The notes: generated by a model from the letters alone, not told the origin. A stretch of DNA of 64,000 nucleotides from Candidatus Omnitrophota bacterium (GCA_022711115.1 JAKLFP010000003.1:9199-73198), one strand, 5' to 3'; positions 23,339-42,216 are shown, counted from the first letter of the stretch. A program made the numbers and translations.

Positions 23339-24020
23339 GGTACCGGGTACCAAGGGGACAGGTTAATCTAGACACCCACCAACTCCTTATCAATGAGTTC
23401 TTCATAGGGACGAGTTGCTTCGACATGTCGACGGTAACGTTCTTGCCTTATCTCTGGCTGTCCTCCCAATGCTTGATATGCAACCGATACCGTCAAAAGT
23501 TCGTTTTTGATCCCGTACGCATAAAAACCATAACTGGAATAGGGCCATTCTGCCGGATTTGAAACCATTTTCGCTCTTACCGGATTCCTTTCGATATATC
23601 GGCCGCAATCCAATAAATAGTTCTCTTTTTCAATTGGTAAGCTTCGATAACGTCCTTGAAATAAATGGCCGAAATGCGTATAGTTTTTTCGGTAGTAATG
23701 ATGATAAGCTCGCTGAATTCCATGCATGTAGCGGCTTAACTCCAAAGAGTTTTCACTTCTCAACAAAAGATGCGCATGATTCGTCATAAGACAGTAATGT
23801 TGAATTTGAACCGGATATTTTTTGAGATATTCACCTATAATTTCGAGAAATTCGTCAAAATCTTCATACCCATGAAACAGTCTCCCTTTATTGTTCCCCC
23901 GAACAATAACATGATAAAGTCCTGTTCCTGACTCTTGCCTTGGACTTCTCCCCATTCATACTCACCTGCCTTTACTGTCTATTTCAACCTGTCCCCTCGG
24001 TACCCGGTACCGTTCTATAA
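23339..24020 (-). mobile_element. RAYT unit 1: REP-like IR, Y1/IS200-like transposase gene, REP-like IR
   Basis: Inverted copies of aacctgtcccc(t/c)(t/c)ggtacccggtacc lie at 23339-23364 and 23986-24020, bracketing the CDS. Confidence 0.65.
23368..23955 (-). CDS. REP-associated tyrosine transposase (IS200/IS605 Y1 HuH family)
   Basis: HuH motif in LMTNHAHLLL and catalytic Tyr in CGRYIERNP. About 90% identical to the second copy at 25343-25930. Confidence 0.75.
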   Translation of the reverse strand: MGRSPRQESGTGLYHVIVRGNNKGRLFHGYEDFDEFLEIIGEYLKKYPVQIQHYCLMTNHAHLLLRSENSLELSRYMHGIQRAYHHYYRKNYTHFGHLFQGRYRSLPIEKENYLLDCGRYIERNPVRAKMVSNPAEWPYSSYGFYAYGIKNELLTVSVAYQALGGQPEIRQERYRRHVEATRPYEELIDKELVGV

Positions 24021-24883
24021 AGTTGATATTTATTGATGCGTTGCTTCAGATGATCAATCACTTGAGGCATCAAACCAGAAAGAAAGTGATGATATTGCCC
24101 TTGAGGATTGAGCATGTTTTCCTTGATCCAAACAAGCATTTCCTTTTCACGAGCTTCATCACCGGTCAATTCAGACATGCGCTGAACCGCACAATGCAAC
24201 ATCGGCCAAGCCATCTCTCCCTGAGCCGCAGTTACAGCATCCTTTTGAGGCAGCAGCTGTTCGTAAAAACCTTTGGCATCTTTAAAATTTCCAGCATGTT
24301 CCGCCATCATCGCTTGTTTTGAAAGCCTTAAAATATCCGTACTTTCCGGTAGCTTTTCTTCCATATATCGCTTTTGCTCATCATAAGAAGCCGTCTCAAA
24401 ATCAGCAAGGCTGTGAATGGAATTAGGATTCTGAGGCATAGCCTTTGGCTCTTCGATCTTTTCGCCTCTTTTTTGAGCTTCTATTTTTTGAAGGAGGCGT
24501 TGTTTGGTTTTTTGATATTTTTGCAAGGTCTCAGGCACCCGATTAACTTGAAGCATTTTTTCGACAAGTGGCAATGCTTGTTCGTATAATTTAAGCCCCT
24601 CATATATTCGGATTAAACCTACTTGAGCCATCCCTTGTATACTACTTGTAGCCCAATCTTCATATAACACCTCGTAAATTTCCCTTGCGTCGGAGAATTT
24701 CCTTTCCTCCTCAAATTGACGCGCCCGATGAAGCAACGCCCATTGTTCATCGATGTTCTGCGCTATTTGATGATACTTATTCCCGCTTAGCATTTCTTTT
24801 TCAGCAGCACTGCAAACAATGAAATGATGCATCATAAAAAACAAAATCAATTCTATTATTAAAATGCATCGAACATTTTTCAT
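23984..24883 (-). CDS. secreted TPR-like protein, paralogue of the 22094-23164 product (candidate immunity protein for the upstream toxin fragment)
   Basis: Signal peptide. Its shared C-terminal region ends in a REP-encoded ...YRTVPGTEGTG. Confidence 0.5.
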   Translation of the reverse strand: MKNVRCILIIELILFFMMHHFIVCSAAEKEMLSGNKYHQIAQNIDEQWALLHRARQFEEERKFSDAREIYEVLYEDWATSSIQGMAQVGLIRIYEGLKLYEQALPLVEKMLQVNRVPETLQKYQKTKQRLLQKIEAQKRGEKIEEPKAMPQNPNSIHSLADFETASYDEQKRYMEEKLPESTDILRLSKQAMMAEHAGNFKDAKGFYEQLLPQKDAVTAAQGEMAWPMLHCAVQRMSELTGDEAREKEMLVWIKENMLNPQGQYHHFLSGLMPQVIDHLKQRINKYQLYRTVPGTEGTG

Positions 24884-25350
24884 GGCGTATTTCGCAGTCT
24901 AGATATAAATTTATCGAGATTGATTTTGTAGATATCATTTATTTTTTCTACGCAACCATCTGTTCTTTCATTTAAAAATTCGTCAATACCAGCTGACCCA
25001 CGAGCCGCAACCAAATTTAATTCTCTCATAAACAAACTCGTCTGCTGGTTAATGAAATCCGAACACTCATTCTGATTCGGCCCAGAGGCACAACTAAAAT
25101 CCAAATGCCCTGCACCCAGGATTTCTATATTGTACTGGTTTTCGACAGGTCTTACATTACCATTTGCATCTTCAATTTGAAACGTTTGCCCGAGATCCTG
25201 GAGCGGCACAGAATCATATTCCCCCATGACGCGTATCAACGTCTTAAGAAAAGGATCATTGATCACGCCATCGCCGACATAAGGCGCCCCATAAGTAACT
25301 ACGGTTGTAAAACGGTACCGGGTACCCAAGGGACAGGTTGATTTAAACAC
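24880..25350 (-). pseudogene. orphan C-terminal fragment homologous to the hydrolase-like C-terminus of the large effector-like proteins
   Basis: VVTYGAPYVGDGV...ILGAGHLDF aligns with INVYGENDFVPLA...ILGADHFDYF of the 563- and 571-aa proteins. Its N-terminus runs out of the REP flank. Confidence 0.5.
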
Positions 25351-25994
25351 CGATTAGCTCCTTATCAATCAATTCCTCATAAGGCCGTGCCGCTTCAACA
25401 TGTTGGCGGTAAAGCTCCTGCCTCATCTCCGGCCGATCGCCTAATGCCTGATACGCCACTGATTCTGTTACAAGTTCGTTTTTGATGCCATAAGCATAAA
25501 AACCATAACTCGAATACGGCCACTCTATGGGAGCCAAAATCATTTTCGCTCTTAATGGATTTCTTTCAATATATCGTCCACAATCCAATAAATAATTCTC
25601 TTTTTCAATGGGTAAACTTCGATAACGTCCTTGAAATAAATGGCCGAAATGCGTATGGTTTTTTCGGTAGTAATGATGATAAGCCCGCTGAACTCCGTGC
25701 ATGTAGCGGCTTAACTCCAAAGAGTTTTCACTTCTCAACAAAAGATGCGCATGATTCGTCATAAGACAGTAATGTTGAATTTGAACCGGATATTTTTTGA
25801 GATATTCACCTATAATCTCGAGAAATTCGTCAAAATCTTCATGCCCATGAAACAGTCTCCCTTTATTGTTCCCCCGAACAATAACATGATAAAGTCCTGT
25901 TCCTGACTCTTGCCTTGGACTTCTCCCCATTCATACTCTCCTGCCTTTACTGTCTATTTCAACCTGTCCCCTCGGTACCCGGTACCTTTCTATT
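25314..25994 (-). mobile_element. RAYT unit 2: REP-like IR, Y1 transposase gene, REP-like IR
   Basis: IRs lie at 25314-25339 and 25961-25994. Confidence 0.65.
25343..25930 (-). CDS. REP-associated tyrosine transposase (IS200/IS605 Y1 HuH family), second copy
   Basis: Same motifs as copy 1. Confidence 0.75.
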   Translation of the reverse strand: MGRSPRQESGTGLYHVIVRGNNKGRLFHGHEDFDEFLEIIGEYLKKYPVQIQHYCLMTNHAHLLLRSENSLELSRYMHGVQRAYHHYYRKNHTHFGHLFQGRYRSLPIEKENYLLDCGRYIERNPLRAKMILAPIEWPYSSYGFYAYGIKNELVTESVAYQALGDRPEMRQELYRQHVEAARPYEELIDKELIGV

Positions 25995-26160
25995 TTTTAC
26001 CATTTTGATCTACAATTTGAAAATTCTGGTGATCAAGAAAGGGCACTGACAAGCCGTCCGCTGACCCGCGAACCCGGATTAATGTCTGAAGATAAGGATC
26101 ATTGATGATGTCATCCCCGGCATGAGGACCTTCATAAACTGTTTTATATAACCTATACTC
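25995..26160 (-). pseudogene. second remnant of the effector C-terminal region (non-coding relic)
   Basis: Nucleotide similarity to 25215-25320 (aggatcattgat...gacatgagg...cataa), but with no intact ORF. Confidence 0.3.
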
Positions 26161-26169
26161 TTTTACTTA

Positions 26170-26649
26170 TTATGTTTGGCCAAGTAATTTTTGTTTTTTA
26201 TCAAATAATTCTTTTTTGGTTTCTTCGCTTTGACAATTTTTGATTAACCAATTAATTTCTTTTACTGCATCATTAAAAGCACCTTTGCTTTGATATAACC
26301 GAGCCAATGCATAGTGTGATGTCCAGGAATAAAAACTATTTTCACTAACTTGAATGGCTCTATTAAATTCAGCTATCGCCTCATCAATATTTCCTTCTTT
26401 CTCAAGTTGGATCGCACGGTCTTCTGCTGCCCACCGTGGTTGGCTTTTCATAGTCACTTTTTTAAGACCTTCTTGTTGTTTATCATTTATTCCAATCCAC
26501 AAAATATTAGCAGGAATCTGCTCCTTAGAATCTTTTCGTTCTTGATAATTCTCAGTAGCCAGAGCTGGTGGTACTATAAAAAAAATTAACACAAGACAAA
26601 ATGTGATTTCGCTTTTCTTTTTCTTATTGATAATCATCTGGCAACTCAC
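26170..26649 (-). CDS. small secreted TPR-like protein (candidate cognate immunity/partner of 26624-28315)
   Basis: 159 aa with a signal peptide and TPR-like helices (YALARLYQSKGAFNDAVKEINWLIKN). It overlaps the stop of the large gene. Confidence 0.5.
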   Translation of the reverse strand: MSCQMIINKKKKSEITFCLVLIFFIVPPALATENYQERKDSKEQIPANILWIGINDKQQEGLKKVTMKSQPRWAAEDRAIQLEKEGNIDEAIAEFNRAIQVSENSFYSWTSHYALARLYQSKGAFNDAVKEINWLIKNCQSEETKKELFDKKQKLLGQT

Positions 26650-28315
26650 TTGAATTTACTTTGTAGCTCCCGTCGCTTTGCTTAAACTGAGCTAAAAAAC
26701 TTAACAGATAATCTTGACCTTTATCAGATAAGCGGGCTATTTCGGCCACAAATTTCCCGATTCTACTGCTCCCATCCGCCTTAGGAAAGTAATCAAAATG
26801 ATCGGCCCCAAGGATTTTAATGTTGATATTTTCGATAGGGACACCATTGGGTCCTGTAAAAGATTTGTTACCTGACGCCAACGGAACAAAATCATTTTCA
26901 CCGTATACATTAATGAATCGTTTGACATTTGAGTTGTTGATCGTCCCCTCATAGAGCGTACCCTCAAGCGTCGGGCCGCCAAGAGCAATTATAGTTGAGA
27001 CATTGTAGTCCCTCTGATCGATCGCTTTCAAGAAGGGATTTGTGCTTCCCGAATACATTACAGCCGTCACACCATGCGTTCTTTGAGCTTCGGTCAAAGC
27101 AATCCATTTTTGATCCAATTTATTCATAAGTTCATTGGTCAATTGATCGCCGCCGAGAGCATCAACGACCCAAGACAAGCTATCTGTAACCGGATTGCCG
27201 TTTTCATACATCGGAGCTAAAAAAATACTCGCAGGATCTACCCCGCGTTCAATCAAGCGGTTCATGAGATTGAATTCATAATCTGGAGGCACACCTTCTG
27301 GCTTAGTATTCCATATCCCATTAGACGCTACAAAGGAGACGAGAGCTTGCTTTTGGATAGAAGTCAACTTTGCAAGGCTCATACCACTAAGGTTAAGATT
27401 CTGTCCGCTTGTCGCAGGCATTGCCAAAGAAATCAACTGTCCTTCAGAAAATTCAAGGCGCGCACCTGTTACTTTATTGATAAAAACAGCTGAATAAATC
27501 GTCCCATCCGGATTTAATACTATCTGATTACCTCCGGTCGCATAAATTTCAAAAAGTTGTTTGTCATTAGAAAAAACTCGATATCCGTGAGCCAGCCCGT
27601 TTTTAACTTCCAAAACCGTATGCAACCCATCAGAAAAGACAGTTTCTACAACACCCTCCTTTAACAAAAACTGTCCATCAGGACCGACCACAAAGATGCC
27701 TCTTTCCGTTTGATCTCCTATCCTCCGTCCGAGCAGAATAGAATCATCGGTGGTTGAAAAATAAAGATCATTATTGGAATCAATATGAACTGCTTTGACG
27801 GGGATTCCATTTAGCACCGTATAATCTGATCTATGAGTAAGGATATCTAATAATCCACCTTGATTTAAAATTGATTCAATAGCATTTCTTTTAAAAATAG
27901 CCGTGGCAAATGTGTCTAAAGCGCCTAAAAGTCCTCTTTGTTTAATCACCTGCATAAAATCAAGAGCTTCTCCAAAGTAAGCCGCTAAGCTCTCAAGGTT
28001 TGTCATTTTAATTCCAAAAAAAGGATTGATTTGCTTAACAGACTTTAAGAAAGCTTCAGCCATAGAACTAACAATCGTCTGATTAGGATTAATCGCCCCA
28101 ATAACTCCAGCCGTTGCAAAACGAAGACCCAAGGCAGTAAAAAGTGGATCAACATTTAGTTTTTCACTGGTAAAATCTAAACCAACCGATATAAGCCCTC
28201 CCATCGTTTCTCTGTTCAATATCGCATTCTGGATCGATTGCCACAAAGAAGCGGGATTGCTGTTTGGATTTATGAATGAACTAATGGCACCTCCCACGGC
28301 TGCGGCCAGCGGCAT
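26624..28315 (-). CDS. large effector-like protein A with alpha/beta-hydrolase-like C-terminal domain
   Basis: 563 aa with no signal peptide. C-terminal motifs are MYSGS (possible nucleophile elbow), YGENDFVP (acid) and ILGADHFDYF (His). About 75% identical to protein B. Confidence 0.55.
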   Translation of the reverse strand: MPLAAAVGGAISSFINPNSNPASLWQSIQNAILNRETMGGLISVGLDFTSEKLNVDPLFTALGLRFATAGVIGAINPNQTIVSSMAEAFLKSVKQINPFFGIKMTNLESLAAYFGEALDFMQVIKQRGLLGALDTFATAIFKRNAIESILNQGGLLDILTHRSDYTVLNGIPVKAVHIDSNNDLYFSTTDDSILLGRRIGDQTERGIFVVGPDGQFLLKEGVVETVFSDGLHTVLEVKNGLAHGYRVFSNDKQLFEIYATGGNQIVLNPDGTIYSAVFINKVTGARLEFSEGQLISLAMPATSGQNLNLSGMSLAKLTSIQKQALVSFVASNGIWNTKPEGVPPDYEFNLMNRLIERGVDPASIFLAPMYENGNPVTDSLSWVVDALGGDQLTNELMNKLDQKWIALTEAQRTHGVTAVMYSGSTNPFLKAIDQRDYNVSTIIALGGPTLEGTLYEGTINNSNVKRFINVYGENDFVPLASGNKSFTGPNGVPIENINIKILGADHFDYFPKADGSSRIGKFVAEIARLSDKGQDYLLSFLAQFKQSDGSYKVNSSELPDDYQ

Positions 28316-28418
28316 TCCGAGAAGTTCGGAGATGCGCGGTTTTCAGCAGTCAGAGGGGAATCGATTTTGATGCCCCATAGTGGCCTATGGTCGAAACAAA
28401 TGTCAAAGATCAAAAAAA

Positions 28419-28919
28419 CTATCGGCCGTTTTTTAAAATTTGTTTTTGGTTATTCTTATCCTTCAAGACAGCTTCGAGAAGATTTTGCTTTCTCTCAGCA
28501 TATTTGGTCGCCAAGCTTGGTTTCAATATGATCAACTGGTTTAGATGTTCAAGCGCAAGACGATAGTCACCTTTTTTCTCATAAAGATCGAGCAACGAAC
28601 GTCGCGGCACACCTTCGTCACCTTTGGTCTTCGCCAACTTTAAAGCGATATTGTATTCTTCTATGGCCAAATCAAGTTCACCAGCATCTTCGAACTTACT
28701 TCCCTTACGAATATGTTCCCACTGCTCATGTATTTTTTGTCTTCTAATTTGAAAAGCATCGCTCTGTTCTTTACTTGCACCAACAATCATTATCGTGTCT
28801 CCTCCTGATTCGCGCGATTCACTACTTTTAGTCTCTTGAGACGGCTTGCCGGCAAAGCCCATAAGCAAAAAAACTATTCCACACACATACGTTATTGTTT
28901 TAATTTTATCGTATCGCAT
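28419..28919 (-). CDS. small secreted TPR-like protein (candidate cognate immunity/partner of 28919-30634)
   Basis: 166 aa with a signal peptide and TPR-like helices. Its ATG abuts the stop of the large gene. Confidence 0.5.
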   Translation of the reverse strand: MRYDKIKTITYVCGIVFLLMGFAGKPSQETKSSESRESGGDTIMIVGASKEQSDAFQIRRQKIHEQWEHIRKGSKFEDAGELDLAIEEYNIALKLAKTKGDEGVPRRSLLDLYEKKGDYRLALEHLNQLIILKPSLATKYAERKQNLLEAVLKDKNNQKQILKNGR

Positions 28920-30634
28920 TAGGAGTTCCCTTCTTCAAAAGATAATTCATCTGGATTAACAATATAAGTATGCGTATTCTCATCATACGAAACGCCAGCG
29001 GTAGTTTCAAAGAAATAGTCGAGTTTACTACCACTTGCTTGCGCCGCTTCACTAAGCCGTGCTACAAACTCTCCTATCTTATTGCTGCCATCTGGCACGG
29101 GGAAATAATCGAAGTGATCAGCGCCAAGAATTTTGATATTTAGGGTGGTGATACCTTCAAAGGATTTGTTACCACCTAAAACTGGGCCAGCAAGCGGCAC
29201 ATAATCTTTATCACCATAGATATTGATAAACGTTTTTACGTGAGAATTATCAATATGCCCTTCATAAAATGTCCCTTCGATCGATGGCCCGCCAAGCGAA
29301 ATAATCGTGGAGACATTGTAGTCTCGTCTATCAATTGCTTTCAAGAAAGGATTTAGACTTCCCGAATACAACACCGAAACGACGCCGTGATCTCGCTGAG
29401 CTGGTGTCATCGTGATCCATTTCTGATCCAGCTTATTGATAAGCTCATCGGTAAGCTGGTCTCCTCCCAGCATATCCGTCACCCAGGAAAAAGTATCTGT
29501 GACCGGATTACCGTTTTCATACATAGGCGCCAGAAAAATACTGGAAGGATCTACACCGCGCTCTACCAAGCGATTTACGAGGTTAATCTCATAATCGGGG
29601 GAAACGCCTTCCGGCTTGGTATTCCAAATTCCGTTCGACGCGATAAAAGAAACGAGACCCTGTTTCTGGATGGATGTCAACTGGGCCAGTGTCATTCCGC
29701 TGACATTAATACTCTGTCCGCTGGGTGCCGTCATGCTAAAAGAAACAAGCTGGCCTTGGGAAAACTCGAGTCTCGCTCCGGTTACCTTATTAATGAAAAC
29801 GGCTGAATAAATACTTCCATCCGGATTCAAAGCGATCTGATTCCCGCCTGTTGCATAAATTTCAAAAAGATCCTTACTATCTGAAAAAACCCGGTAGCCA
29901 TGAGCTTGCCCGTTTTTCACTTCCAGAACAGTATGCATACCATCGGGGAATGTGGTTTCTACAACCCCCTCTTTTAATAAAAACTTTCCGCCGGCGCCGA
30001 TTACAAACGCGCCTCGTTCCACCTGATTACCACTTCTTCGCCCTAAAAGGATCGAATCATCCGTTGTTGAAAAATACAGATCGTTGTTTGCATCAATGTG
30101 GATAGCTTTTACGGGTATTCCGTTCACGGTCGTATATTCCGCCTGTCCTGTAAGAATATCGGCAAGTCCGCCTTGCCGCAGAATGGATTCGATCGCATCC
30201 CTCTTGAAAATAGAAGTGGCATACAAATCCAACGCAGCCAGGAGCCCTTTTTCCCGAATCAGATCAACAAAGTTAATGGCTTGGGAAAAATAGAACGCCA
30301 GACTTTCGGGACTCGTTACATCCATCCCGTCAAAAGGGTTCAGCCGTTTGACGGAATCCAAAAAGGCTTCGGCCATGGCACTCATGATCGTCTGATCGGG
30401 ATTGATTGCTCCCATCACTCCAGCAGTAGCCAAACGTAAACCTAAAGCCGAAAAAAGAGGGTTGATATTAAGTTTTTCGCTCGCAAGATCGAATCCAATG
30501 GAAAGAACACCCCCTATCGTTTCTCGACTGAACACGGCATTTTGGATGGACTGCCATAAGGAAGTCATCCCGCCATTCGGATTTAAGAGGTCCCTTGTAA
30601 CGCCTCCCACTGCCGCGGCAAACGGCAAACCCAC
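28919..30634 (-). CDS. large effector-like protein B (paralogue of A); GTG start as listed
   Basis: 571 aa with the same motif set as A (LYSGS, YGDKDYVP, ILGADHFDYF). Confidence 0.55.
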   Translation of the reverse strand: MGLPFAAAVGGVTRDLLNPNGGMTSLWQSIQNAVFSRETIGGVLSIGFDLASEKLNINPLFSALGLRLATAGVMGAINPDQTIMSAMAEAFLDSVKRLNPFDGMDVTSPESLAFYFSQAINFVDLIREKGLLAALDLYATSIFKRDAIESILRQGGLADILTGQAEYTTVNGIPVKAIHIDANNDLYFSTTDDSILLGRRSGNQVERGAFVIGAGGKFLLKEGVVETTFPDGMHTVLEVKNGQAHGYRVFSDSKDLFEIYATGGNQIALNPDGSIYSAVFINKVTGARLEFSQGQLVSFSMTAPSGQSINVSGMTLAQLTSIQKQGLVSFIASNGIWNTKPEGVSPDYEINLVNRLVERGVDPSSIFLAPMYENGNPVTDTFSWVTDMLGGDQLTDELINKLDQKWITMTPAQRDHGVVSVLYSGSLNPFLKAIDRRDYNVSTIISLGGPSIEGTFYEGHIDNSHVKTFINIYGDKDYVPLAGPVLGGNKSFEGITTLNIKILGADHFDYFPVPDGSNKIGEFVARLSEAAQASGSKLDYFFETTAGVSYDENTHTYIVNPDELSFEEGNS

Positions 30635-30810: not shown

Positions 30811-31335
30811 TCAGCCCCAACGCACCATGTCAGGGTTAACAACTTCATTGCATTTTGTACATTTCGGTTGCGAACGAGACACTTTACCCTCTTCGCAGTT
30901 CGGGCAGACATCAGTATCAAGGAGAAGGAAAACGTTTTTTCCCATCTCGGCACCACATTCCGGACATGTGGAATGCAACAACTTGAAGTCCCAAACTCCC
31001 CAGCACGAGGGACAATAATCATGCGGAACCTTTTTGATGACACCATCTGTAATATAAGTATGGACGGTGGAACTGCTATCGACGCGAAATGGTTTCTTTT
31101 CTCCTCCAAAACAAGCGATTCCGGTTCTAACCATAGAGATTGATTTTTCTTTTTCCGAATCAAACACGTCAAGATCCATGTTGATGGAGATCGAATATTT
31201 TGTGGCAAGAGAAGCACACAAATCTTCCAGTTTCGCCTTTAATTCTTTTAGATGCCCCGCTTTATGCAATTCTTCAAATTTATCATAAACGGCGTCCGCT
31301 AACTTATCCAACTTGTCGAATTGATTCGGCTCCAT
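30811..31335 (-). CDS. double zinc-ribbon protein with helical N-terminal domain
   Basis: Four CxxC pairs (CPSC...CPEC...CPNC...CTKC) in the C-terminal half. Confidence 0.45.
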   Translation of the reverse strand: MEPNQFDKLDKLADAVYDKFEELHKAGHLKELKAKLEDLCASLATKYSISINMDLDVFDSEKEKSISMVRTGIACFGGEKKPFRVDSSSTVHTYITDGVIKKVPHDYCPSCWGVWDFKLLHSTCPECGAEMGKNVFLLLDTDVCPNCEEGKVSRSQPKCTKCNEVVNPDMVRWG

Positions 31336-31403
31336 TCCGCCCTCCCATTAAACGCCATGATTTATGTAAAAAACGAGAACCAATTTTTGAATTCTTCTTA
31401 CTT

Positions 31404-32051
31404 TCAAGGTTGCACGTTATTGCGAATCCTCTCCAGAACGGTCCGATCCAATTTAGCAAGATCGTGTTCGCTGACAAGACCGTAAAGTTCAAAGCCATCC
31501 GCATAAAGCTGCAATTGTATTTCGGGACATTGTTCCGACAGGAAGTTCAACCAGCGCAAAAAGCTTTCTCTCGCTTGAGTATTCTGACCTAGCTCTTTTT
31601 CGGCTTTAGCCTTAGCCGCCCATGCAGAAACGCTATTTTCGGGATCCATACCCAAAGCAGCATTGAAGCACTCTAAAGCTTCCTCCCATCGGTTATTCTC
31701 CAGGAGCAAATTTCCTTTTTCCTGGAGCCAGCCGGTATTCTGCGGGTCAATGGCGATGACTTTATCGTAATTCTCAAGCGCATCCGTGAGATTACCAAGA
31801 CAACCTAAACAATAAGCCTTTCCGCTATATATGAATTTTTCTTCGCTTGCTCGATATTCAACATTACTTGCTAAAGTTTTATCAAAATATTCTAGGGCAG
31901 TTTTAAATTCTTCCTTATCCATAGCCTCCCGTGCAAGCTTAAGGTATCCAACTTGATGCAATTCACGACGATAAATGGCCATATTGTTCCTTGGATGTCG
32001 CTTTTGAGGGATAAAATGACATGAATTTTTAAAAAGCAATTCTAACATCAA
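31404..32051 (-). CDS. TPR-repeat protein
   Basis: Three or four TPR units. The likely real start is MAIYRRE with an aagga SD near 31982. Confidence 0.5.
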   Translation of the reverse strand: MMLELLFKNSCHFIPQKRHPRNNMAIYRRELHQVGYLKLAREAMDKEEFKTALEYFDKTLASNVEYRASEEKFIYSGKAYCLGCLGNLTDALENYDKVIAIDPQNTGWLQEKGNLLLENNRWEEALECFNAALGMDPENSVSAWAAKAKAEKELGQNTQARESFLRWLNFLSEQCPEIQLQLYADGFELYGLVSEHDLAKLDRTVLERIRNNVQP

Positions 32052-35000
32052 TATTCATACTTATCTTTACGGTGGATAAATGCTTTCTTGCCTCCTTCCA
32101 AAATCTCAGCACCATGTTCACGTATACCTTGCTTTTTTAGAGGATCCTTAAGGGCGTTGTTAATAAATGAGTTTTCTATCGCTCCACTTACGTACCTTAT
32201 TCTTGCTTGGCCAGCGGAAGGCGCAACTTGGAAGTCGGCTACAATTACTTGTTCAGCGTCAGTATTTAAAACAAGATTAGGGTTATGCGTGACAACAATA
32301 ATTTGGCGCCGTTTCTTTGCTTGGCGGAAATAATCGATGAGATGCGCATACACAGATTTATTATCAAGGTTTTCCTCTGGCTGGTCTATGATAAGCGGTA
32401 TCCCGCTTTTCGCATCTAACGTGAGGTACATAAGCAGCAACACAATCCCCTTCTTGCCGGGAGACAGCAACTCAATATATGTGTTCTGATATTTTATGCT
32501 ATACGTCACACTAAAGAATGAAACACCGAAAAGCCATGCATCAAAATCGATCTGCCTCTTTCCCTTCTTGAACTGATTTTCGGCATCTGATCCCTTTCCA
32601 TCTTCTTTGCCAAACGCCTGCATGAAACGTTCGACAAGAAGGTTGTATGTATCGGCATCTTCTACAAGTTCAATTTTCTCCGCAATAGATTTTATATCCT
32701 TAAACAATTGTTTATCGTCTTGATGATAACGACCAGATGCTTTAAAGTTAACAACCTCGCATGCCTTATCATAAAATCCATTTACATCAAATTCGATTCT
32801 TGCAGAATATCCGATTTGCTTCTCCCCTACATTCTCAGCGTCTATTTTTGCTTTAATGGGAGCACTAAGCGCTTCGAAAATTTCCTTTTCCTTTTGAAGA
32901 AGAATAAAATAATTTTTATAGGTTGTTTTTCTATCTTCGATTTTTTTTGCAAGGATAGGCATCTTAGTTTGTTCTATTTCAGCAATATTCTTCTCTAAGG
33001 CTGAAACCGTTTTCTTATTCTTCTCAATTTTGTCTTCAAAATCTTTGATTACATTTCTCGCATCAGAGGCGATGCTTGATTTTGCCTCTAACCAAGCGAT
33101 TTCCGCATTTAACCCAGAAAGGGAAAGCTTGTTAATATAATCTGAAGTTATTTCGCCGATCTTTTTGTCTTTGCCAGAAACAGGTGATGCCTCCTCCGTT
33201 GCACCTTCTAGAACAATTATCTGTCCCGTTAGTTTCTTCCTCGCTTCTTCTAGTTTAGTTTTAAACTCTGGGTCTACAGTAAATTTCAATTTACTATGAA
33301 TACCGCCTAGACCGATTGAATCAAGATCGGTTTTAATATCACTCAGTTCTTTTTCGATATGTTGAGACAATGTTGAGACCTTTGTCTCTATTGACTCTAT
33401 AGTGCTTAACTGAAGTTTGCACTCAGCAATCTTTTCGTTAATTTCGTTCTTCTTGGCGTAAAGAATAGTCAGCTTATCTTCGATGGCTTTCTCTTCAGCG
33501 TCTGCAGGCTTAGGCTTTTGCTCGTTTAATTGAGCTATTTCTTCTTCGGTCTTCTTTTTTGTTGTCCTTTGAATCTCGAGACTCCCAATCTCTTCCCTTA
33601 ATTTAGCGATCTCGCCATTGAGTTCAAAAATAAGTTTTTTGCAGCTACTCTTTTCCACCTCTACACTTCGTGTTCTCAGGCGTTTCAGGTCAGCAAATGT
33701 TGTTTGCCCAAGCCTGTCGGATATTGGAATATACTGAAAAACGATGTTTTCAATCTCTTGCCTTAATTCATCTGCGTGCTCAGGACGACATCTATTTTCA
33801 ATAAAACTTTGGGAAAGGTATTTAACCTTTTTCTTAGTTTTATAATCAGTCAATTCTTCATCTATAACAATCTCGTCAGGGTCGCCCTCTTTCCATCGAA
33901 TAGTTACCTTGCACTTATCAATCGTTTTTTCAATTTGTTTTGTTGGAGTTAAGGCTTTAAACACAAACGAGCTTGCATCGCCTTTTAGAAGCTCAAAATC
34001 ACCGCATGCTAACGCTATAAAATCAGCAAGTGCAGTCTTACCTGCACCTTTTTCACCGATGATAGCAACTAAGTCTTCATTTAGAGGAAGTGGCGTCTCT
34101 TCAAACCAACCGTTGGAATTTGCAATTTCGACTTTATCAATCACATTCGCTAGATTTTTTCCTTTTGCAGGCATCTTGCCAATATGAATCCTATCTTCTG
34201 GCTCAAGAACAACCTGCTTAAGGCCTATAAATGTCGGGTCTGCTTTTATCCAGCAAAAGCGTTCGAGGTCTGGTCTAGTCTCAAGCTCCTGCTCCGTGTG
34301 AGCATCTGACCCATGGACGCAGGGAAACAATCTGCCGAATTCAGCAATAAATTCTTTCGGCTCTGCATAAGAGGCTTTGTCTTTGCCAAGGAACCAAGCA
34401 ATGTCGTTAGGATTAGAATTAAAAATGCCGTGAGAGATTTGAAGCAGAGTCTTTCGCAATCCATAATCCTGCCCCCAATCGATATCGGACCAAAATTCGC
34501 TTTCTAGAAAAAGAAGATATTTCCCCTTAAAATAATCTGGTTTGTTGCGTAAAGCATTTACTATCTCATCTATTTTAAAAACGATATTCTTTGTGCCGGC
34601 AGACAAATCAGTATCGTGTTTAAAATCGGCCTGTTTCCTACACTCTTTGCCATAATCCTCTATAGCCTTCTTATCAAGCTTAATTTTAGAAAGCTCTCCG
34701 GCGCTACCGCTTCCTTTATAAAAATGAAGATCACCCAAAAACTGCGCCTTAATATCTTGCGGAGAAACTTCGTCACTAAATATGACATGGAAGTTTAATC
34801 GTTTCGGCTCTTTATTGCCCCGCTTACAGACTATATTGTCCAAACGAAATTCTATGTTAGGAAGGATTAATTCCACACTTCCAAGTTTTCCTTTGTAGTC
34901 GGTTATAAGCTTCTCGTACCCATCTATGGAAAAATAATCTGTAACACCAATAACCTTGATCTCTTTTTGCTTCGTAACTTCATCAAGCTTCTTAAAGTAA

Positions 35001-35092
35001 GAATCCCAATTACTAAACCCATTACAGAAAGAAGCTGGAGAATGAACGTGTAAATCCCATTTTCGCCATACAGATCCTCGTTCATACTTCAT
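32048..35092 (-). CDS. PHP-domain phosphoesterase fused to SMC/Rad50-like ABC ATPase with long coiled-coil insert (candidate defence protein)
   Basis: The N-terminus has WDLHVHSPAS...GVTDYFSIDGY (PHP metal-binding motifs). Walker A is GEKGAGKT, followed by about 450 aa of coiled coil, then signature/Walker B/H-loop LIIDQPEENLD...VVTHNPN. Confidence 0.6.
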   Translation of the reverse strand: MKYERGSVWRKWDLHVHSPASFCNGFSNWDSYFKKLDEVTKQKEIKVIGVTDYFSIDGYEKLITDYKGKLGSVELILPNIEFRLDNIVCKRGNKEPKRLNFHVIFSDEVSPQDIKAQFLGDLHFYKGSGSAGELSKIKLDKKAIEDYGKECRKQADFKHDTDLSAGTKNIVFKIDEIVNALRNKPDYFKGKYLLFLESEFWSDIDWGQDYGLRKTLLQISHGIFNSNPNDIAWFLGKDKASYAEPKEFIAEFGRLFPCVHGSDAHTEQELETRPDLERFCWIKADPTFIGLKQVVLEPEDRIHIGKMPAKGKNLANVIDKVEIANSNGWFEETPLPLNEDLVAIIGEKGAGKTALADFIALACGDFELLKGDASSFVFKALTPTKQIEKTIDKCKVTIRWKEGDPDEIVIDEELTDYKTKKKVKYLSQSFIENRCRPEHADELRQEIENIVFQYIPISDRLGQTTFADLKRLRTRSVEVEKSSCKKLIFELNGEIAKLREEIGSLEIQRTTKKKTEEEIAQLNEQKPKPADAEEKAIEDKLTILYAKKNEINEKIAECKLQLSTIESIETKVSTLSQHIEKELSDIKTDLDSIGLGGIHSKLKFTVDPEFKTKLEEARKKLTGQIIVLEGATEEASPVSGKDKKIGEITSDYINKLSLSGLNAEIAWLEAKSSIASDARNVIKDFEDKIEKNKKTVSALEKNIAEIEQTKMPILAKKIEDRKTTYKNYFILLQKEKEIFEALSAPIKAKIDAENVGEKQIGYSARIEFDVNGFYDKACEVVNFKASGRYHQDDKQLFKDIKSIAEKIELVEDADTYNLLVERFMQAFGKEDGKGSDAENQFKKGKRQIDFDAWLFGVSFFSVTYSIKYQNTYIELLSPGKKGIVLLLMYLTLDAKSGIPLIIDQPEENLDNKSVYAHLIDYFRQAKKRRQIIVVTHNPNLVLNTDAEQVIVADFQVAPSAGQARIRYVSGAIENSFINNALKDPLKKQGIREHGAEILEGGKKAFIHRKDKYEY

Positions 35093-35243: not shown

Positions 35244-38200
35244 TTAAATCTTTCCACCTGAAATATCAAAAAACCGCTCAAAGAAGCGTGTCAATTTATC
35301 TAAAACACTCTCGCGTTTTTTGGAACGCTCCCCTCCGGGAGAAAAACGTGATACCGGCGGCAAGACTTTGACCAGAGCAGTACCCGTGGTCGCAACCCTG
35401 CCATTACGGAACGCATCCCGAACAAACTGATAGGTTTTGTCGCGATCAAGATTTTCCTGTTTAATAATCGTTTCCAGTTCTTCTGTCTTTTTCTTTTCCA
35501 CATACTTCTGCCAGTCCTCGTCAACAGAAGCATGGATATCCAGGGAAGCGATAAACTCGTTGATGAGATCTTTTTTGTTGCGCAATTCAACGCTTGAGTC
35601 GATGGCCTTGTTGATGTCGACAAGGATTTCGCGGTTTTTGATGTGGTCTTCGTGGTACTTTTTAACGAGACTCAAAATATAATCGATATTGATCTCAATC
35701 TGTTTGATCAGCTCCATCTCAAACACGATATCGTCGTTAATATTCTCCTTTTCAGCTTCACCGGTATTCCGAAATTCATTATAAAGGTCAATGTAGATGC
35801 TGTGATAGTCCTGCGTTTGGCGCTGGGTTAAAATTTCGTGACCGCTGAATTCGTCAAAAGTAACGAGGATATTTCGGACCCGCAAAATGGCGCTGTAAAG
35901 CCTGATGAAATCTTTTTGATTTTGTTCTCCGACGATCCGCTCACCAATCGGGAATTTTGCCAAAAGCTCTTGAACGAGAGAGGCATATCCACGGATTTCC
36001 TTGTCACCGTCTTTGTAGCCGTTGTAGTACTCCTCATACGTTTTTAGAAGAACGATTCCGCTGGCTTCCTTATCGCCAAAGAGGGCGATGGATTCATTGG
36101 TTGCTTTTTCCAGATTCCGAAAGCAAACAATATTTCCGAACGTCTTGACGCTGTTTAAAATGCGATTGGTGCGGGAATATGCCTGCAACAAGCCATGCAG
36201 GCGAAGATTTTTATCCACCCACAACGTGTTGAGCGTCGTGGCGTCAAAGCCAGTCAGAAACATGTTCACAACGAGCAGAAGATCCACTTCCCGATTTTTC
36301 ACCCGCTCGCTGACATCCTTATAGTAATTCTGAAACTTATCGGAAGACGTGTCATAAGAGGTCCCAAACATCGCGTTGTAGTCTTGAATGGCGCTCTCAA
36401 GAAAATCCCTTGAGCTTTGGTCCAATCCGCTGGTGTCCTCGGAATTTTCGTCAATCACCCCATCAATCTCTTCCTCATTGATACCAAAGCTGTAAATCAG
36501 GGCTATTTTGAGTTTTCTATCGCTCGGTGCCTCTGCGATCTGTTTCTTGAATTCAGCGTAATACTTCTTGGCCACTTCGATTGAAGAGACGGCGAAAATA
36601 GAATTAAAACCGGCCAGCCTGCGATTCTTAAGCTTGTAAAAGCTGTTTCGTTTCGTTTTTTGATCGAAATGCTCGCGGATATAGTTCACGATATTGGCTA
36701 AACGTTTCGGTGAAGCAAGCACCGCTTCCCGGTCAATATCGCGCACTTTCTTGTCCTCAATATTTTCAGCTTCCTTTAAAGTCGAAACATAATCCACTTT
36801 GAACGGCAGAACATTTTTGTCCGCAATAGCATCGACGATGGTGTAGGTATGGAGTTTATCGCCAAAAGCCTGCTCGGTCGTCTTAAAATCCGGACGTCCA
36901 CCCGCCGAAGCATTCACTGCAAAAATCGGCGTCCCGGTAAAACCGAAGAGATGGTAATTCTTAAATGCTTTCGTAATCGCGGCATGCATTTCACCGAACT
37001 GAGACCGATGACATTCATCAAAAATCAGCACCACATGGCCGTCAAAAATTGTATGTCCCTTGTTGCGGCCGATGAACCGGTCGAGTTTTTGAATGGTAGT
37101 GATGATAATGCGGGCCTTAGTGTCTTCCAGCTGTCGTTTCAATATCGAAGTACTGGTATTGCTATTGGCCGCACCTTTTTCAAACTTGTCGTATTCCCGC
37201 ATGGTTTGATAATCAAGGTCTTTGCGGTCCACAACAAAAAGCACCTTGTCGATAGAAGACAGTTTACTTGCGAGTTGGGCGGTTTTGAAACTCGTCAGAG
37301 TCTTGCCCGAGCCGGTGGTATGCCAAATGTAACCGCCCGCCGCTACGGTTCCGAGTTTTTTATAGTTCGTGCTCACCTCAATCCTGTTCAATATTCTTTC
37401 CGTTGCCACAATCTGATACGGGCGCATTACCAAAAGCTGTTTGTCAGCCGTGAACACGCAGTAGCGGGTGAGGATATTAAGAAGAACATGTTTGGCAAAA
37501 AAGGTCTTGGCAAAATCGACAAGATCAGCAATCGGTTTATTGGTCGCATCCGCCCACCAGCTTGTGAATTCGAAGCTGTTACTGGTCCGCTTGCCTTTCT
37601 TTAAGGAGCCTTCGCTTAATTCTTTGATATGTTCCGCACGTGTCGTGTTGCTGTAGTATTTCGTGTGAGTGCCGTTCGAGATGACAAAAATCTGAACATA
37701 TTCAAAAAGCCCAGAGCCCGCCCAAAAACTCTCCCGCTGGTAACGTCTGATCTGATTAAAAGCCTCCTGAATCGCCACCCCACGTCGTTTCAGTTCAATA
37801 TGAACGACTGGTAAGCCGTTAACCAGCACCGTTACATCGTAGCGGTTGGCTCTTTGACCTTCTTCAGTGGCGTATTGATTGATAACCTGTAGCCTGTTTT
37901 CGTGAATTTTGTCTTTGCGGAGCAAATAGATATTTTTAACTGTTCCGTCATCTCTTTTCAGGTTCTTGATAAAATCTTCCTGAATCGTGGCCGTTTTTTC
38001 GGCAATACTCTGGTTGGGATTAGCTATCTCGCCCGTAAAAAAGCGATCCCATTCCATATCGGAGAAGGTGAAGTCATTCAGTTTTTCAATTTGTTTGCGA
38101 ATGTTAAGAATCAAGTCGGTTTCGGAAGTGATCGCCAAATAGTCATAAGCCTGCGATTGCAACTGCTCGATAAACGCACGTTCCAGTTCCGCCTCACCTT

Positions 38201-38399
38201 GATACGATCTTGCAGTTCGGTACTCGGCTGAGTATTCCGCCACGACCGTACTTTGTGGATTTTCTGCCACCAACTTGTATTCTTTATTGCTTGGCATATT
38301 CTTTTTCCAACGGTTTAAAAGTAAGAAGTTTCTTTCGGTAGTATTCGTATTGTTTTTTTCGGGCATCGAGTTCCGCTGGCAAACCCATCGAAATATCAT
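35244..38399 (-). CDS. hsdR: Type I restriction enzyme R subunit
   Basis: Type I HsdR N-terminal nuclease domain, then an SF2 helicase with TGSGKT and DECHRSQ. The real start is probably MPSNKEYK at about 38297. Confidence 0.8.
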
Positions 38400-39465
38400 T
38401 TACCAGTGCTTCGAATTTATCGAGAATAGCAACGATGCGTTCCTGTTCATCAAGAGGCGGAATCGGTATAAGGTAAGACTCAAAATCCCTAACACGAACA
38501 TGTGGCACTCCACTGCCTTTTTTCATGGAATGGATTGTTTCCTGTTTTTGCTTCAATAAGTAATAAACAAATTTAGCTTTTAGCAGGGCGTGATCCACAC
38601 GAACGCTGAACGCATCTGTGAGAAAGATCGGTTGGTTCCAGAAACTTACTAACCCCGCGTAAGCGCCAGACCTAGCGACAACGATAGTCTCTCCGCTTCT
38701 GTTACTCTCGTTGTGAAAATAAATAGGGCTGGGCGCATTTGCAACAACCGGAATTTCACCAGCTGTGGTTTCCTTAGCCGTTATGGCTGTCCCTCGCATA
38801 AGCTGGCCGACCTCCGCCAGTGACTTCCATTCAACATCTTCTTCAAACGTCAATAGTTCTTCGCTATAATAATTATATTGGTGTTTTCTCGCCTCCAGCT
38901 CCGCCTCCAGCTCCGCCTCCAGCTCCGTAAAGTTATCTAAAATTTTCACGATTTCTTGTTGAACGGCAAGTGGTGGCGTAGAGATTCCAATCTCTAACAT
39001 CTTTCCTTTAGTCAACTTTGCTCGAGTTCCGCCAGTCAAGTACGGAACAAAGTTCATATTTTTAAGGTAATGAAATAGGAATCTGTTATCGAGATCACCA
39101 TTTCCTCTTACAACATGAACGTGATTATTTGCCCAAAATTTACCCGAAGCAAATTGTATTGAATAATTCTCCAAACTTGCGGAACCATCTTCAGCAATCA
39201 GCACATAATCGCCTTCATGGGTAAAACCCTCAACGTAATCTTGAATGTTGTTCGCGCCATAGTATGGAATTTCACCCGCTAGGCGCAAACTTGACTTTAC
39301 CGGCTTTCTTTTATTGTCCGCAATTTCACAAATTTCTCCTAATTCCTTAAGCTCCACACCATCGGGACAAATTCCGGCGATTAGTTTTTCAATTTTATTC
39401 ATAGACTTATTCATGCTTGTTTTCAATATCAGCAACAATTTCATCAATCGCCGTGCGCAGTTCAT
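38284..39465 (-). CDS. hsdS: Type I restriction-modification specificity subunit
   Basis: Two target-recognition domains separated by a central conserved helix carrying an ELEA x3 repeat. Confidence 0.75.
38891..38926. repeat. perfect 12-bp direct repeat x3 (gcctccagctcc) encoding (AELE)3 in the HsdS central spacer helix
   Basis: Read directly from the sequence. Confidence 0.8.
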
Positions 39466-40987
39466 TTTGCCGCGTAACGATGCCTTTTATTTCCGCATTG
39501 AGTTTCTTAATATCGATCACTTCGCGGGTGTCTTTTTGCGCTACATAGGTGGATACCGCGATGTTGTAGCCGTTTTCCTCAATAGTTTTGTAATCTACGA
39601 GCTTCGCGAAATGTTCGATATCATCACGTTTGGTAAACGCCTTGAGGATTTTGGCGCGGTTTTCATCGCTCAGCTTGTTCTTGTTGCCGCCTCGGACAAA
39701 TTCGGTTGATGCGTCAATGAACAGGATTTTATTATCTTTCTTGCTTTTTTTGAGCACGATGACACAAGTTGCGATGGTCGTGCCGAAGAAAAGATCGGGC
39801 GGAAGCTGGATCACGGTATCGATGTAGTTGTTATCCACCAGATATTTGCGAATCTTCTGCTCTGCGCCGCCGCGGTAAAGAACGCCCGGAAATTCAACGA
39901 TAGCCGCCGTGCCGCTCGTGGAAAGCCATGAGAGCATGTGCATAGTAAAGGCAAGATCGGCCTTGCTTTTCGGGGCCAGAACTCCCGCAGGGGAGAAGCG
40001 AGGATCATTGATGAGAAGAGGATTGCTGTCGCCATCCCATTTGATTGAATACGGTGGATTGGAAACGATAGCGTCAAACGGTTCGTCATCCCAGTGCTTT
40101 GCGTCGGTTAGCGTATCCCCGTGGGCAATATCGAAGTGATTGTAATTGATATCGTGCAAAAACATATTGATGCGGCACAGGTTGTATGTGGTGAGATTGA
40201 TTTCCTGCCCAAAGAAGCCTAATCTCACGTTTCCCTTGCCGAGAATCTTGGCAAACTTTAGAAGAAGCGAACCAGACCCGCAGGCCGGGTCATAGACCTT
40301 GTTGACTTCCTTCTTACCCACAGTCGACAGACAAGCAAGCAGTTCGCTCACTTCCTGCGGCGTAAAAAATTCGCCTCCGGATTTTCCCGCGTTGGAAGCG
40401 TACATGGTCATCAAGAACTCATAAGCGTCCCCAAAAGCGTCAATCGTATTGTCGTAATAATTACCCAACCGGAGGTCGCCGATTGCTTCCAAAAGCTTCA
40501 CAAGTTTCTGGTTTCTTTTCTCAACGGTATTTCCTAGCTTGCTGGAATTTACATCAAGATCGTCAAACAAACCTTTGAGATCATCTTCGCTGTCCGAACC
40601 CTTGGCCGATTTTTCAATGTTGCGAAATACCGCGGCGAGCGTTTCGTTAAGATTAGCGTCCTGACGCGCTTTCGCGCGGACATTGACAAAAAGCTCGCTC
40701 GGCAAAATGTAAAATCCTTTTTCCTTCACCGTATCAGCACGCCCGAATTCAGCTTTCTTGTCCGGTATCTTGGTATAGTCAAAATCTTTATTGCCACTGC
40801 GCCGTTCGTCTTCATTGATATAGCTGGTGAGATTTTCACTGATGAAGCGGTAAAAAAGCATCCCTAAGACATATTGTTTGAAGTCCCAGCCGTCCACGCT
40901 GCCGCGCAGATCGTTTGCGATTTGCCAGATGGCTCGGTGCAGTTCAGCGCGTTCCTGCTCTTTGGTTGTATTGAGATTATTTGCCAT
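39407..40987 (-). CDS. hsdM: Type I restriction-modification DNA methyltransferase subunit (N6-adenine)
   Basis: Motif [11 protein letters not shown] and motif IV NPPY, with an HsdM N-terminal domain. Confidence 0.8.
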
Positions 40988-41176
40988 TTATGATCTCCGT
41001 GTCTTTGCAGGTCGCTGCTTCCTGACCCAATTATCCACTTCCTTCAAATCAAATCTCCACTGCCCGCCTACTTTTGAAGCTGGCATCTTCCCCTTTTGGC
41101 AAAGCCGGTAGATCTTCTCCCTAGATACTTGCAGATAGCCAGCTATTTGCTCAATCGTTAGCCATTTATCAGTCAT
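40988..41176 (-). CDS. excisionase-family (MerR-like) DNA-binding protein
   Basis: 62 aa with LTIEQIAGYLQVSREKIYRLCQKGKMPASKVGGQWRF. It abuts the hsdM start. Confidence 0.6.
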   Translation of the reverse strand: MTDKWLTIEQIAGYLQVSREKIYRLCQKGKMPASKVGGQWRFDLKEVDNWVRKQRPAKTRRS

Positions 41177-41367: not shown

Positions 41368-42216
41368 TCAGAGCCTATGACGTCTAAACCTTCTTGCATT
41401 TAGTAGCGCGAGAGGATCCGGATATTGTCTTCCGGTATGAGCGGCAGCGTTCTCACGCTGGAGCCGAATATATTCCGCGATATAGCAAAGATTCCCTTGA
41501 GCAATAAGTAAGTCAGGGGCCGTAGAAGCTAATTTTACAAGTTCTTCCCGCCTCACTCCGGCTACTACAGCAAACCCTTCCACACGATTGGGAAATAGAC
41601 ACCACAGAGCGGAACGTCTCGCATCTTCCTGAGGAACAGAATCATCCCTACCCTGAAAATCAAAATAAACTGGAACTGAACATGTAAGCCAGTTTGCAGG
41701 GAAACATTCATCAGGAAACGACGAAAGAAAAAAGCCCTTAACTGTTTGTCTGAGACTCCTAAAACCTTTACAAAATCGCGGGTAGTCCCTTATGAGACGC
41801 GTACCATCAACAACCCATAACATATTTTTATAGAAACGTTCGCGGCTTTGCATTTCATCGGGCTGGATTGCGGAACGTTGAAATTCTATTACCAATCCAC
41901 TAGTTGTTTTAATGTCTGCTTTATGTATTTCTCCGGATGCAGGATCTCTGTGGATTATTTCTTGGCAATTTTCAGGAAAACGATTTTTCCATGCTCTGTG
42001 CCATTCCGTTTCATTCTCCCACCACGAATCACATGAAATTTTACTTTTGTGCGCCCAATGCTTAATTCTTTCTTTCCCGCATTTAGCAATCATAACGCTT
42101 TGGCAAATGTCACAAGTACCTCGCAGTCCTTGCTGAGCTTCCGCCTTAACTCCGTTTATTTGAGCGAATTTCATAGTCCGGTCCTTGTAAGCAATTTTCC
42201 AAACGCATTTCCACAA
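41368..42216 (-). CDS. CoiA-like competence-family protein (nuclease-like)
   Basis: CDIC...AKCG...HWAH...C..WWENETEWH matches the CoiA N-terminal pattern. The real start is probably MKFAQING. Confidence 0.55.
   Translation of the reverse strand: MWKCVWKIAYKDRTMKFAQINGVKAEAQQGLRGTCDICQSVMIAKCGKERIKHWAHKSKISCDSWWENETEWHRAWKNRFPENCQEIIHRDPASGEIHKADIKTTSGLVIEFQRSAIQPDEMQSRERFYKNMLWVVDGTRLIRDYPRFCKGFRSLRQTVKGFFLSSFPDECFPANWLTCSVPVYFDFQGRDDSVPQEDARRSALWCLFPNRVEGFAVVAGVRREELVKLASTAPDLLIAQGNLCYIAEYIRLQRENAAAHTGRQYPDPLALLNARRFRRHRL

Follow-up and report, generated by a model that had tools for sequence, protein, structure and literature searches.

A TrlF-family PHP phosphoesterase and SMC/Rad50-like ATPase fusion protein beside a Type I restriction-modification operon of Candidatus Omnitrophota

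Introduction

The described systems closest to the protein analysed here are Ppl and the TrlF protein of Photorhabdus laumondii. Ppl is described in the literature (PMC12904381; Xu et al., Mol Cell 2026, as cited by PMC13434339) as a single-gene exonuclease that degrades single-stranded DNA in the 3'-5' direction. Its PHP and nucleoside triphosphatase (NTPase) domains are inhibited by bound nucleoside triphosphates (NTPs), and it is activated by NTP depletion in combination with 3'-OH ends. TrlF (temperature-restriction locus protein F; NF045780) is encoded by the Photorhabdus trlR-trlF-trlG operon, situated between polA and dsbA (PMC7554251). Here we report the analysis of a 64,000-nucleotide stretch of a Candidatus Omnitrophota genome (GCA_022711115.1, JAKLFP010000003.1:9199-73198; hereafter the window, in which all positions are counted unless a locus is named), where a gene of the minus strand encodes a 1014-amino-acid (aa) protein with the same PHP plus ABC ATPase architecture as TrlF and a full-length match to the TrlF profile. 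We propose that TrlF is probably a Ppl-like, stand-alone, single-gene anti-phage DNA nuclease-ATPase, the relatives of which were repeatedly built into restriction-modification (R-M) operons.

TrlF resembles Ppl in combining an N-terminal PHP domain and a C-terminal NTPase in one polypeptide, in occurring mostly as a lone gene on mobile elements, and in a profile match that is significant but covers part of the length (E 1e-20 to 4e-21). It differs from Ppl in forming a separate curated family, and in that the exonuclease activity and the sensing of NTPs and 3'-OH ends are described for Ppl, whereas they are predicted for TrlF. As for the Photorhabdus temperature-restriction (TRL) operon, it comprises TrlG and the small regulator TrlR, whereas the gene of the window is accompanied by neither of them and follows a Type I R-M operon. 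The TrlG domains AlbA_2 and HATPase_c_4 had no Pfam match among the neighbouring HsdR, TPR and zinc-ribbon proteins of the window.

Results

Assignment to the TrlF family

The protein is encoded by the open reading frame (ORF) given below, in which every PHP, Walker A, Walker B and H-loop string quoted by an initial annotation of the window was found (WDLHVHS at residues 12-18, VTDYFSIDGY at 50-59, GEKGAGKT at 346-353, LIIDQPEENLD at 900-910 and VVTHNPN at 933-939). A Candidatus Omnitrophota metagenome-assembled genome (GCA_035390585.1) encodes an identical protein.

32048-35092, minus strand: trlF-family gene, a 1014-aa ORF for a fusion of a PHP phosphoesterase and an SMC/Rad50-like ABC ATPase

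The protein scored 592.9 bits with the NCBIfam model NF045780 'TrlF family AAA-like ATPase' (cut-off 350), in an alignment running end to end (residues 5-1013 versus positions 1-944 of 944), and is a genuine TrlF-family member. It adds a member to an already named family, distantly related to Ppl, and no new kind of system.

The initial annotation had described the protein as possibly Ppl-like. What stands of this proposal is the shared architecture and a detectable homology, and what falls is membership of Ppl itself, since TrlF is a separate curated family and the Ppl model (NCBIfam NF042955) gave 74.8 bits against a cut-off of 1000, its best stretch (residues 869-955) lying in the C-terminal ATPase only. 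Similarly, the comparison with the Ppl profile of PADLOC that the annotation had put forward did return a partial match (PDLC02208, the top defence match; 71 bits, E 1.4e-20), which was confined to the C-terminal ATPase (residues 872-955 versus profile positions 773-853 of 894) and was followed by weaker, ATPase-only matches to LmuB, MAD3, AriA and PtuA. The 2023 PADLOC release holds no dedicated TrlF model, and its best match is this partial one. A TrlF of Klebsiella aligns with the Ppl profile at residues 210-376, which points to a homology with Ppl extending beyond the ATPase. The Spaf_1101 family (NF045781) was also considered and rejected (110.9 bits where the cut-off is 475, with the match limited to residues 650-1013). 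In Pfam, the 1014-aa protein matched SMC_N (52 bits), AAA_21 and AAA_23, and gave no PHP match at E <0.01. Direct sequence searches of the PDB, with the whole protein or an N-terminal profile, gave marginal matches only (ABC/SMC proteins, E 0.08-0.6; PsfC, E 1.4), and the PDB copy searched contained no structure of Ppl or TrlF.

A predicted PHP barrel fused to a split ABC head

The predicted domains and motifs of the protein are as follows.

34178-35092, minus strand: PHP domain, residues 1-305, with the candidate ligands D13, H15, H17, D52, E81, H102, H221, D263 and H265
33671-34177, minus strand: N-terminal half of the ABC head, residues 306-474 (Pfam SMC_N, AAA_23)
34034-34057, minus strand: Walker A motif GEKGAGKT, within residues 306-474; the Q-loop residue Q428 lies in the same half
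32837-33670, minus strand: antiparallel coiled-coil arm, residues 475-752 (helices of the AlphaFold2 model)
32051-32836, minus strand: C-terminal half of the ABC head, residues 753-1014, including the conserved C-terminal tail
32447-32467, minus strand: signature motif LSPGKKG, in the C-terminal head half
32363-32398, minus strand: Walker B/D-loop PLIIDQPEENLD, in which Q904 (codon 32383-32385) replaces the catalytic Glu
32276-32290, minus strand: H-loop THNPN, in the C-terminal head half

When residues 1-315 were modelled alone (pLDDT 90.6), the 11 significant Foldseek matches of the resulting model were all of the PHP fold (PsfC, BAD_1165, Pol III alpha and RNase AM). An alignment with 48 diverse homologues (26-49% identity) and two close relatives (~80%) showed that the 1014-aa protein possesses the conserved PHP metal-ligand set (HxH, D/H, E, H, H, DxH). 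H17, E81, H102, D263 and H265 are each present in 48/48 homologues, D52 in 47/48 and H15 in 45/48, while position 221 is a His or an Asp in 39/48. From these data, the N-terminal domain is predicted to fold as a PHP barrel in which the metal ligands are retained. At E <0.1, Pfam recognised PHP in seven and PHP_C in ten of the 48 homologues. The PHP domain of the initial annotation is upheld by the predicted structure and by the retention of the ligands among the 48 homologues, a point that the annotation had left to an alignment; the call rests on these two lines because the Pfam sequence match of the protein itself is below threshold.

The AlphaFold2 model of the full-length protein (53 homologues; pLDDT 85.8, pTM 0.71) was compared by Foldseek with the PDB, where the heads of SMC, Rad50, JetC, MukB, condensin/cohesin and LmuB were the best matches (E 9e-10 to 1e-3). 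The model indicates an SMC/Rad50-type split ABC head with a ~280-aa coiled coil between its halves. The Rad50-like head that the annotation expected from a structure prediction was recovered, whereas the ~450 aa that it allotted to the coiled coil are reduced to the ~280 residues of two long helices (475-592 and 658-752). The apex of the arm (~593-657) is poorly conserved (0.31-0.45), and the sole cysteines are at positions 484 and 558. A zinc hook of the Rad50/RloC type was rejected from the alignment, with no CxxC at the apex and no conserved Cys pair in the arm.

The residues invariant in 53/53 homologues are G346, G351 and K352 (Walker A), Q428 (Q-loop), S877, G879 and G882 (signature), D903 and Q904 (Walker B), P905, the D-loop residues N908, L909 and D910, and H936 (H-loop). 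In canonical ABC/SMC ATPases, the Walker B Asp is followed by a catalytic Glu. In the 53/53 homologues, as well as in the copy of a Yersinia phage (see below), Walker B reads D-Q (DQPE) rather than D-E. This D-Q pair is akin to a natural 'EQ' state, and slow hydrolysis is therefore suggested, by analogy with the E-to-Q mutants of ABC/SMC proteins. The same analogy suggests that the nucleotide may stay bound and the heads engaged, in keeping with a role as sensor or switch.

The proteins giving the best structural matches to the TrlF head and coiled coil, namely Mre11-Rad50/SbcCD, JetC (Wadjet) and LmuB (Lamassu), likewise couple a nuclease to an ATP-gated SMC-like clamp. In TrlF, the predicted nuclease is fused in cis and of the PHP type, as opposed to the Mre11-type phosphoesterase, the Toprim protein JetD or the LmuA effector; the arm is short, with neither hook nor hinge; Walker B is D-Q, not D-E; and, unlike the SMC-like defence systems, no kleisin or partner genes for TrlF are present at the locus. 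Identity with Mre11-Rad50/SbcCD was rejected, for the head fold matches but there is no zinc hook and no Metallophos domain in Pfam. With PrrC and RloC, TrlF shares the layout of a large ATPase-effector fusion in or beside R-M operons, trlF abutting a Type I R-M locus, and with RloC also a Rad50-like coiled-coil insertion. Identity with PrrC/RloC was likewise discarded: no AAA_13 match at E <0.01, no anticodon-nuclease domain and no zinc hook were found, the effector being the N-terminal PHP domain. In addition, PrrC and RloC belong to Type I R-M loci, whereas the relatives of TrlF occur also in Type III operons and are mostly not linked to R-M genes.

Recurrent linkage to restriction-modification genes

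The genes directly upstream of trlF were identified by Pfam, PADLOC and NCBIfam matches, and by the gene calls of the source contig.

35244-40987, minus strand: Type I R-M operon, directly upstream of trlF and co-directional with it
39407-40987, minus strand: hsdM
38284-39402, minus strand: hsdS
35244-38297, minus strand: hsdR

Together, hsdM, hsdS and hsdR make up a complete Type I system. The end of hsdR (35244) and the start of trlF (35092) are separated by 151 nt, in agreement with the ~150 nt of the initial annotation, and the two genes have the same direction. The operon is the context of TrlF and a likely functional neighbour, outside the TrlF protein itself.

In a neighbour-joining tree built with 117 full-length TrlFs, a copy was counted as linked when a Type I or III gene lay no more than 3.5 kb away, and the figures are lower bounds since many contigs are short. 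Type I or III genes were found near 20 of the 117 trlF genes, or 21 when counting L089, where a mod gene follows trlF. The clade to which the protein of the window belongs accounts for 11 of these among its 18 members, and the others are scattered over the tree, which implies a repeated capture. The R-M linkage noticed in the window, and its synteny, are thereby seen to recur in relatives. In five relatives with 52-60% identity, trlF lies between the Type III genes in the order mod-trlF-res, with adjacent genes overlapping by 4 nt at one extreme and standing 16 nt apart at the other.

L090 468-3581; L091 3901-7011; L092 3572-6664; L094 7919-11008; L104 8001-11102: trlF in mod-trlF-res loci

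In L104, two ThsB-like TIR genes follow res. Type I orders in more distant genomes include hsdM-trlF-hsdS (L067), hsdR-hsdS-trlF (L008), hsdS-trlF (L003) and hsdM-S-R-trlF (L002), and others. The idea that TrlF supplies the nuclease of nuclease-less Type III-like helicases was rejected: the adjacent Res proteins keep a C-terminal D...DxK (PD-(D/E)xK-like) motif, and TrlF is therefore an addition to Res, not its nuclease.

Distribution and mobile contexts

The distribution of TrlF is patchy, with horizontal transfer, in both bacteria and archaea. With an E value of 1e-5 or lower, the query matched more than 5,000 database clusters, many of which may match the ATPase half only. In the species-representative genome collection, at least 585 stretches contain confirmed relatives. 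Outside the R-M-linked set, most copies are solitary and lie on plasmids, in prophages or in integrase-flanked islands. The neighbours that recur in genomes are tyrosine integrases (14 loci), serine recombinases (6), YhcG-type PD-(D/E)xK nucleases (6), AbiEi/AbiEii (3) and conjugation genes. No partner recurring at position +1 or -1 of trlF was found across 80 genome loci.

Among plasmids, 689 records matched, of which 487 are conjugative; Klebsiella and Escherichia are the source of many, and the full-length matches (28-30% identity) are named TrlF by PGAP. On a Klebsiella IncFII plasmid (L097:3253-6392), TrlF is flanked by an AAA ATPase and UvrD helicase pair on one side and by an Abi-family gene and ccdAB on the other, and other plasmid copies are solitary, near integrases, relaxases and cargo genes. 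The P2-like Yersinia phage vB_YenM_42.18 (L098:2751-5369) encodes an 872-aa TrlF (464.8 bits, above the TrlF cut-off), annotated as 'chromosome partition protein', in the region bounded by gpA (replication) and gpQ (portal). In IMG/VR contigs we found ~22 full-length TrlF copies. About 50 viral contigs (L130-L178) encode 620-890-aa proteins that match the last ~140 TrlF residues only, from Walker B to the C-terminal tail, with 31-46% identity. Some of these proteins are divergent TrlFs, and those of ~630 aa may form a related family without a PHP domain.

Downstream genes and wider surroundings

Two genes follow trlF in the window, for the first of which two starts can be read.

31404-31982, minus strand: TPR protein, 192 aa from M24 (public gene-caller start, with an AAGGAA Shine-Dalgarno sequence upstream)
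31404-32051, minus strand: alternative ORF of the TPR protein, 215 aa, with a TTG start at 32051
30811-31335, minus strand: zinc-ribbon protein, 174 aa, with a helical N-terminus and two zinc ribbons

The TPR protein matches Pfam TPR_1 and TPR_2 (E 1e-15 to 1e-16), and the zinc-ribbon protein has the CxxC pairs C108/C111, C124/C127, C144/C147 and C159/C162. Both genes are present and co-directional with trlF, as first annotated, whereas the partnership proposed for them did not hold up. Homologues of the two proteins were sought by phmmer among the ORFs of all fetched loci, which comprised 80 loci from species-representative genomes (27-54% identity), 8 from metagenomes and 73 from viruses, as well as plasmid and look-up loci; in ~115 other full-length trlF loci, none was found beside TrlF. 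In three close relatives, trlF belongs to an hsdR-hsdM-hsdS-trlF-GmrSD series (P0002, 64% identity), lies amid housekeeping genes (P0003, 63%) or adjoins DUF6998 and a transposase (P0016, 62%).

Conversely, the zinc-ribbon family is small (16 clusters, 44-87% identity) and its relatives stand in unrelated contexts, namely an island with PglZ/BrxL (BREX-type), Mrr and toxin-antitoxin genes, next to a 165-aa protein, or next to an aldo-keto reductase; neither TrlF nor a TPR gene adjoined them in the loci examined. The nearest homologue (87%; L084:8001-8525) lies amid PglZ/BrxL (BREX-type) genes, an Mrr-like nuclease and integrases, and this island further holds a TacA/acetyltransferase toxin-antitoxin pair. 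The zinc-ribbon family may itself be a genomic-island cargo. Further TPR genes occur in the same part of the window (at 22094, 23984, 26170 and 28419). A promoter and terminator scan of the hsdR-trlF and trlF-TPR-zinc-ribbon gaps was uninformative, with counts near the shuffled expectation. The TPR and zinc-ribbon genes are local neighbours, outside the TrlF system.

The setting of trlF is a defence island. The GC content of the window drops to 0.38-0.43 over ~22-36 kb, versus 0.48-0.51 at the window ends, and is lowest in trlF. No tRNA or other integration landmark was found in a search within the window. The following genes lie upstream of the R-M operon.

44499-44729, minus strand: Multi_ubiq, member of a ubiquitin-like conjugation operon
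43325-44524, minus strand: DUF6791 plus ThiF E1-like protein, same operon
42988-43335, minus strand: BubE, same operon
42266-42853, minus strand: 195-aa protein with no Pfam match, same operon
41368-42216, minus strand: protein with a CoiA N-terminal and a nuclease-like domain, upstream of hsdM
40988-41176, minus strand: HTH_17 protein of 62 aa, directly before hsdM

The ubiquitin-like conjugation genes just upstream of the R-M genes (42988-44729, minus strand), with Multi_ubiq, an E1-like protein and BubE, resemble the bacterial ubiquitination-like (Bub/Bil-type) defence operons. An HTH_17 gene immediately precedes the Type I operon in locus L081 as well. On the other side of trlF, a duplicated module is present on the minus strand (28419-30634 and 26170-28315), each copy encoding a ~565-aa protein and a ~160-aa TPR protein, and the two ~565-aa proteins match each other at E 1e-262. 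The low-GC stretch 22094-30634 also contains two copies of an IS200/Y1 transposase (23368-23955 and 25343-25930).

Discussion

In the mechanism that we propose, TrlF would follow a Mre11-Rad50-like logic in one polypeptide, with a PHP phosphoesterase in the place of Mre11. Two heads would engage around the NTP, and the arms and heads would recognise DNA ends or unusual DNA, as reasoned from Ppl and SMC/Rad50, the D-Q NTPase site operating mainly as a slow-hydrolysing nucleotide sensor or switch. Upon activation, for example by free 3'-OH ends and the fall of NTP pools in infection, the PHP domain would degrade the invading DNA as an exonuclease. TrlF would act alone, as a one-gene defence module of plasmids, prophages and genomic islands. 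Its insertion into R-M operons suggests a co-expression and a synergy at the DNA level, because restriction cuts create ends for TrlF, rather than a specific protein-protein licensing.

Several points weigh against this proposal. The literature searched contained no assay of a TrlF-family protein for nuclease activity or phage defence, and the term 'TrlF family' was not found in papers. The Pfam PHP match (PF02811) of the 1014-aa protein is sub-threshold (17.5 bits versus 26.4) and limited to residues 13-69, and position 53 is a Tyr where many PHP enzymes carry a His, so that the metal site may differ from the canonical one. PHP enzymes also act on phosphoesters other than DNA, so that DNA is a putative substrate of TrlF. 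The role of the D-Q site as a sensor is something that we only infer. Some close TrlF homologues lie amid housekeeping genes. Finally, the Photorhabdus trlR-trlF-trlG locus causes a temperature-dependent growth arrest for which all mutations fell in trlG and none in trlF (PMC7554251). This phenotype would fit a defence operon of a toxic or abortive kind, and says nothing direct on TrlF.

Three other roles can be envisaged. TrlF might be a restriction-coupled end processor, i.e. a third subunit class of Type I/III R-M operons in an integrated two-layer system, which we regard as rather unlikely. TrlF would then be loaded onto the double-strand ends that restriction leaves, where it would destroy the fragments or prevent them from being repaired or recombined, or else it would fire as a back-up once restriction stalls; the D-Q Walker B would make the ATPase a sensor of the nucleotide level and not a motor. 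A guardian of the PrrC/RloC type, which contact with the R-M complex would silence and which phage anti-restriction would free as an abortive-infection nuclease, draws on the position of trlF directly after hsdR, on the embedding of trlF in the R-M operons of many relatives with overlapping or nearly overlapping stop and start codons, on the RloC-like layout of a coiled-coil ABC ATPase and a nuclease, and on the guardian concept established for PrrC and PARIS (PMC12707154). We disfavour it, as an unlikely explanation, because one clade is embedded in two mechanistically different types of R-M systems (I and III), because the slots vary (after hsdR, after hsdS, between hsdM and hsdS, or between mod and res), and because for 96 of the 117 copies no R-M gene was detected at a distance of up to 3.5 kb, the plasmid copies being solitary; the lack of a PrrC/RloC-type AAA_13 or anticodon-nuclease match speaks against it as well. 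A housekeeping or element-maintenance enzyme acting on DNA ends, be it a substitute of SbcCD/Mre11-Rad50 in the processing of hairpins or breaks, or a plasmid stability or growth-arrest factor, would fit the Rad50/SMC-like head and arm, the homologues found amid biosynthetic genes, the growth arrest linked to the Photorhabdus operon, and one plasmid copy near imuA and error-prone polymerase genes. Such a role is improbable in view of the patchy and horizontally transferred distribution in bacteria and archaea, the enrichment on conjugative plasmids and prophages with integrase, toxin-antitoxin, Abi and R-M neighbours, and the low GC of trlF relative to its flanks; besides, a TrlG-like gene (AlbA_2 plus HATPase_c_4) was not found adjacent to trlF in the window, and trlF was unmutated in the TRL screen.

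A three-gene system, in which the TPR protein would be a sensor or adaptor and the zinc-ribbon protein a nucleic-acid-binding partner of TrlF, is very improbable. Such a system was suggested by the common direction of the genes, by their spacing (the TPR gene lies ~65 nt from trlF, or overlaps it by 4 nt when the TTG at 32051 is taken as its start, and the zinc-ribbon gene follows after 68 nt), by the failure to find a convincing terminator between them, and by the same gene order in three assemblies of one organism. These assemblies are near-identical contigs and so are not independent; the homologues of both proteins are missing even beside the closest TrlF relatives (50-64% identity), those of the zinc-ribbon protein adjoin unrelated genes, and TPR genes are plentiful in this stretch of the genome.

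For this window, the more exotic three-gene hypothesis is removed, and the proposal of a stand-alone, Ppl-like TrlF bears on the family as a whole. TrlF is widespread yet has no assigned biochemical function, and it is a concrete candidate for a common single-gene defence system. In addition, the TrlF clade whose genes are integrated in R-M operons of Types I and III is a candidate case of cooperation between restriction and a downstream nuclease acting on DNA ends.

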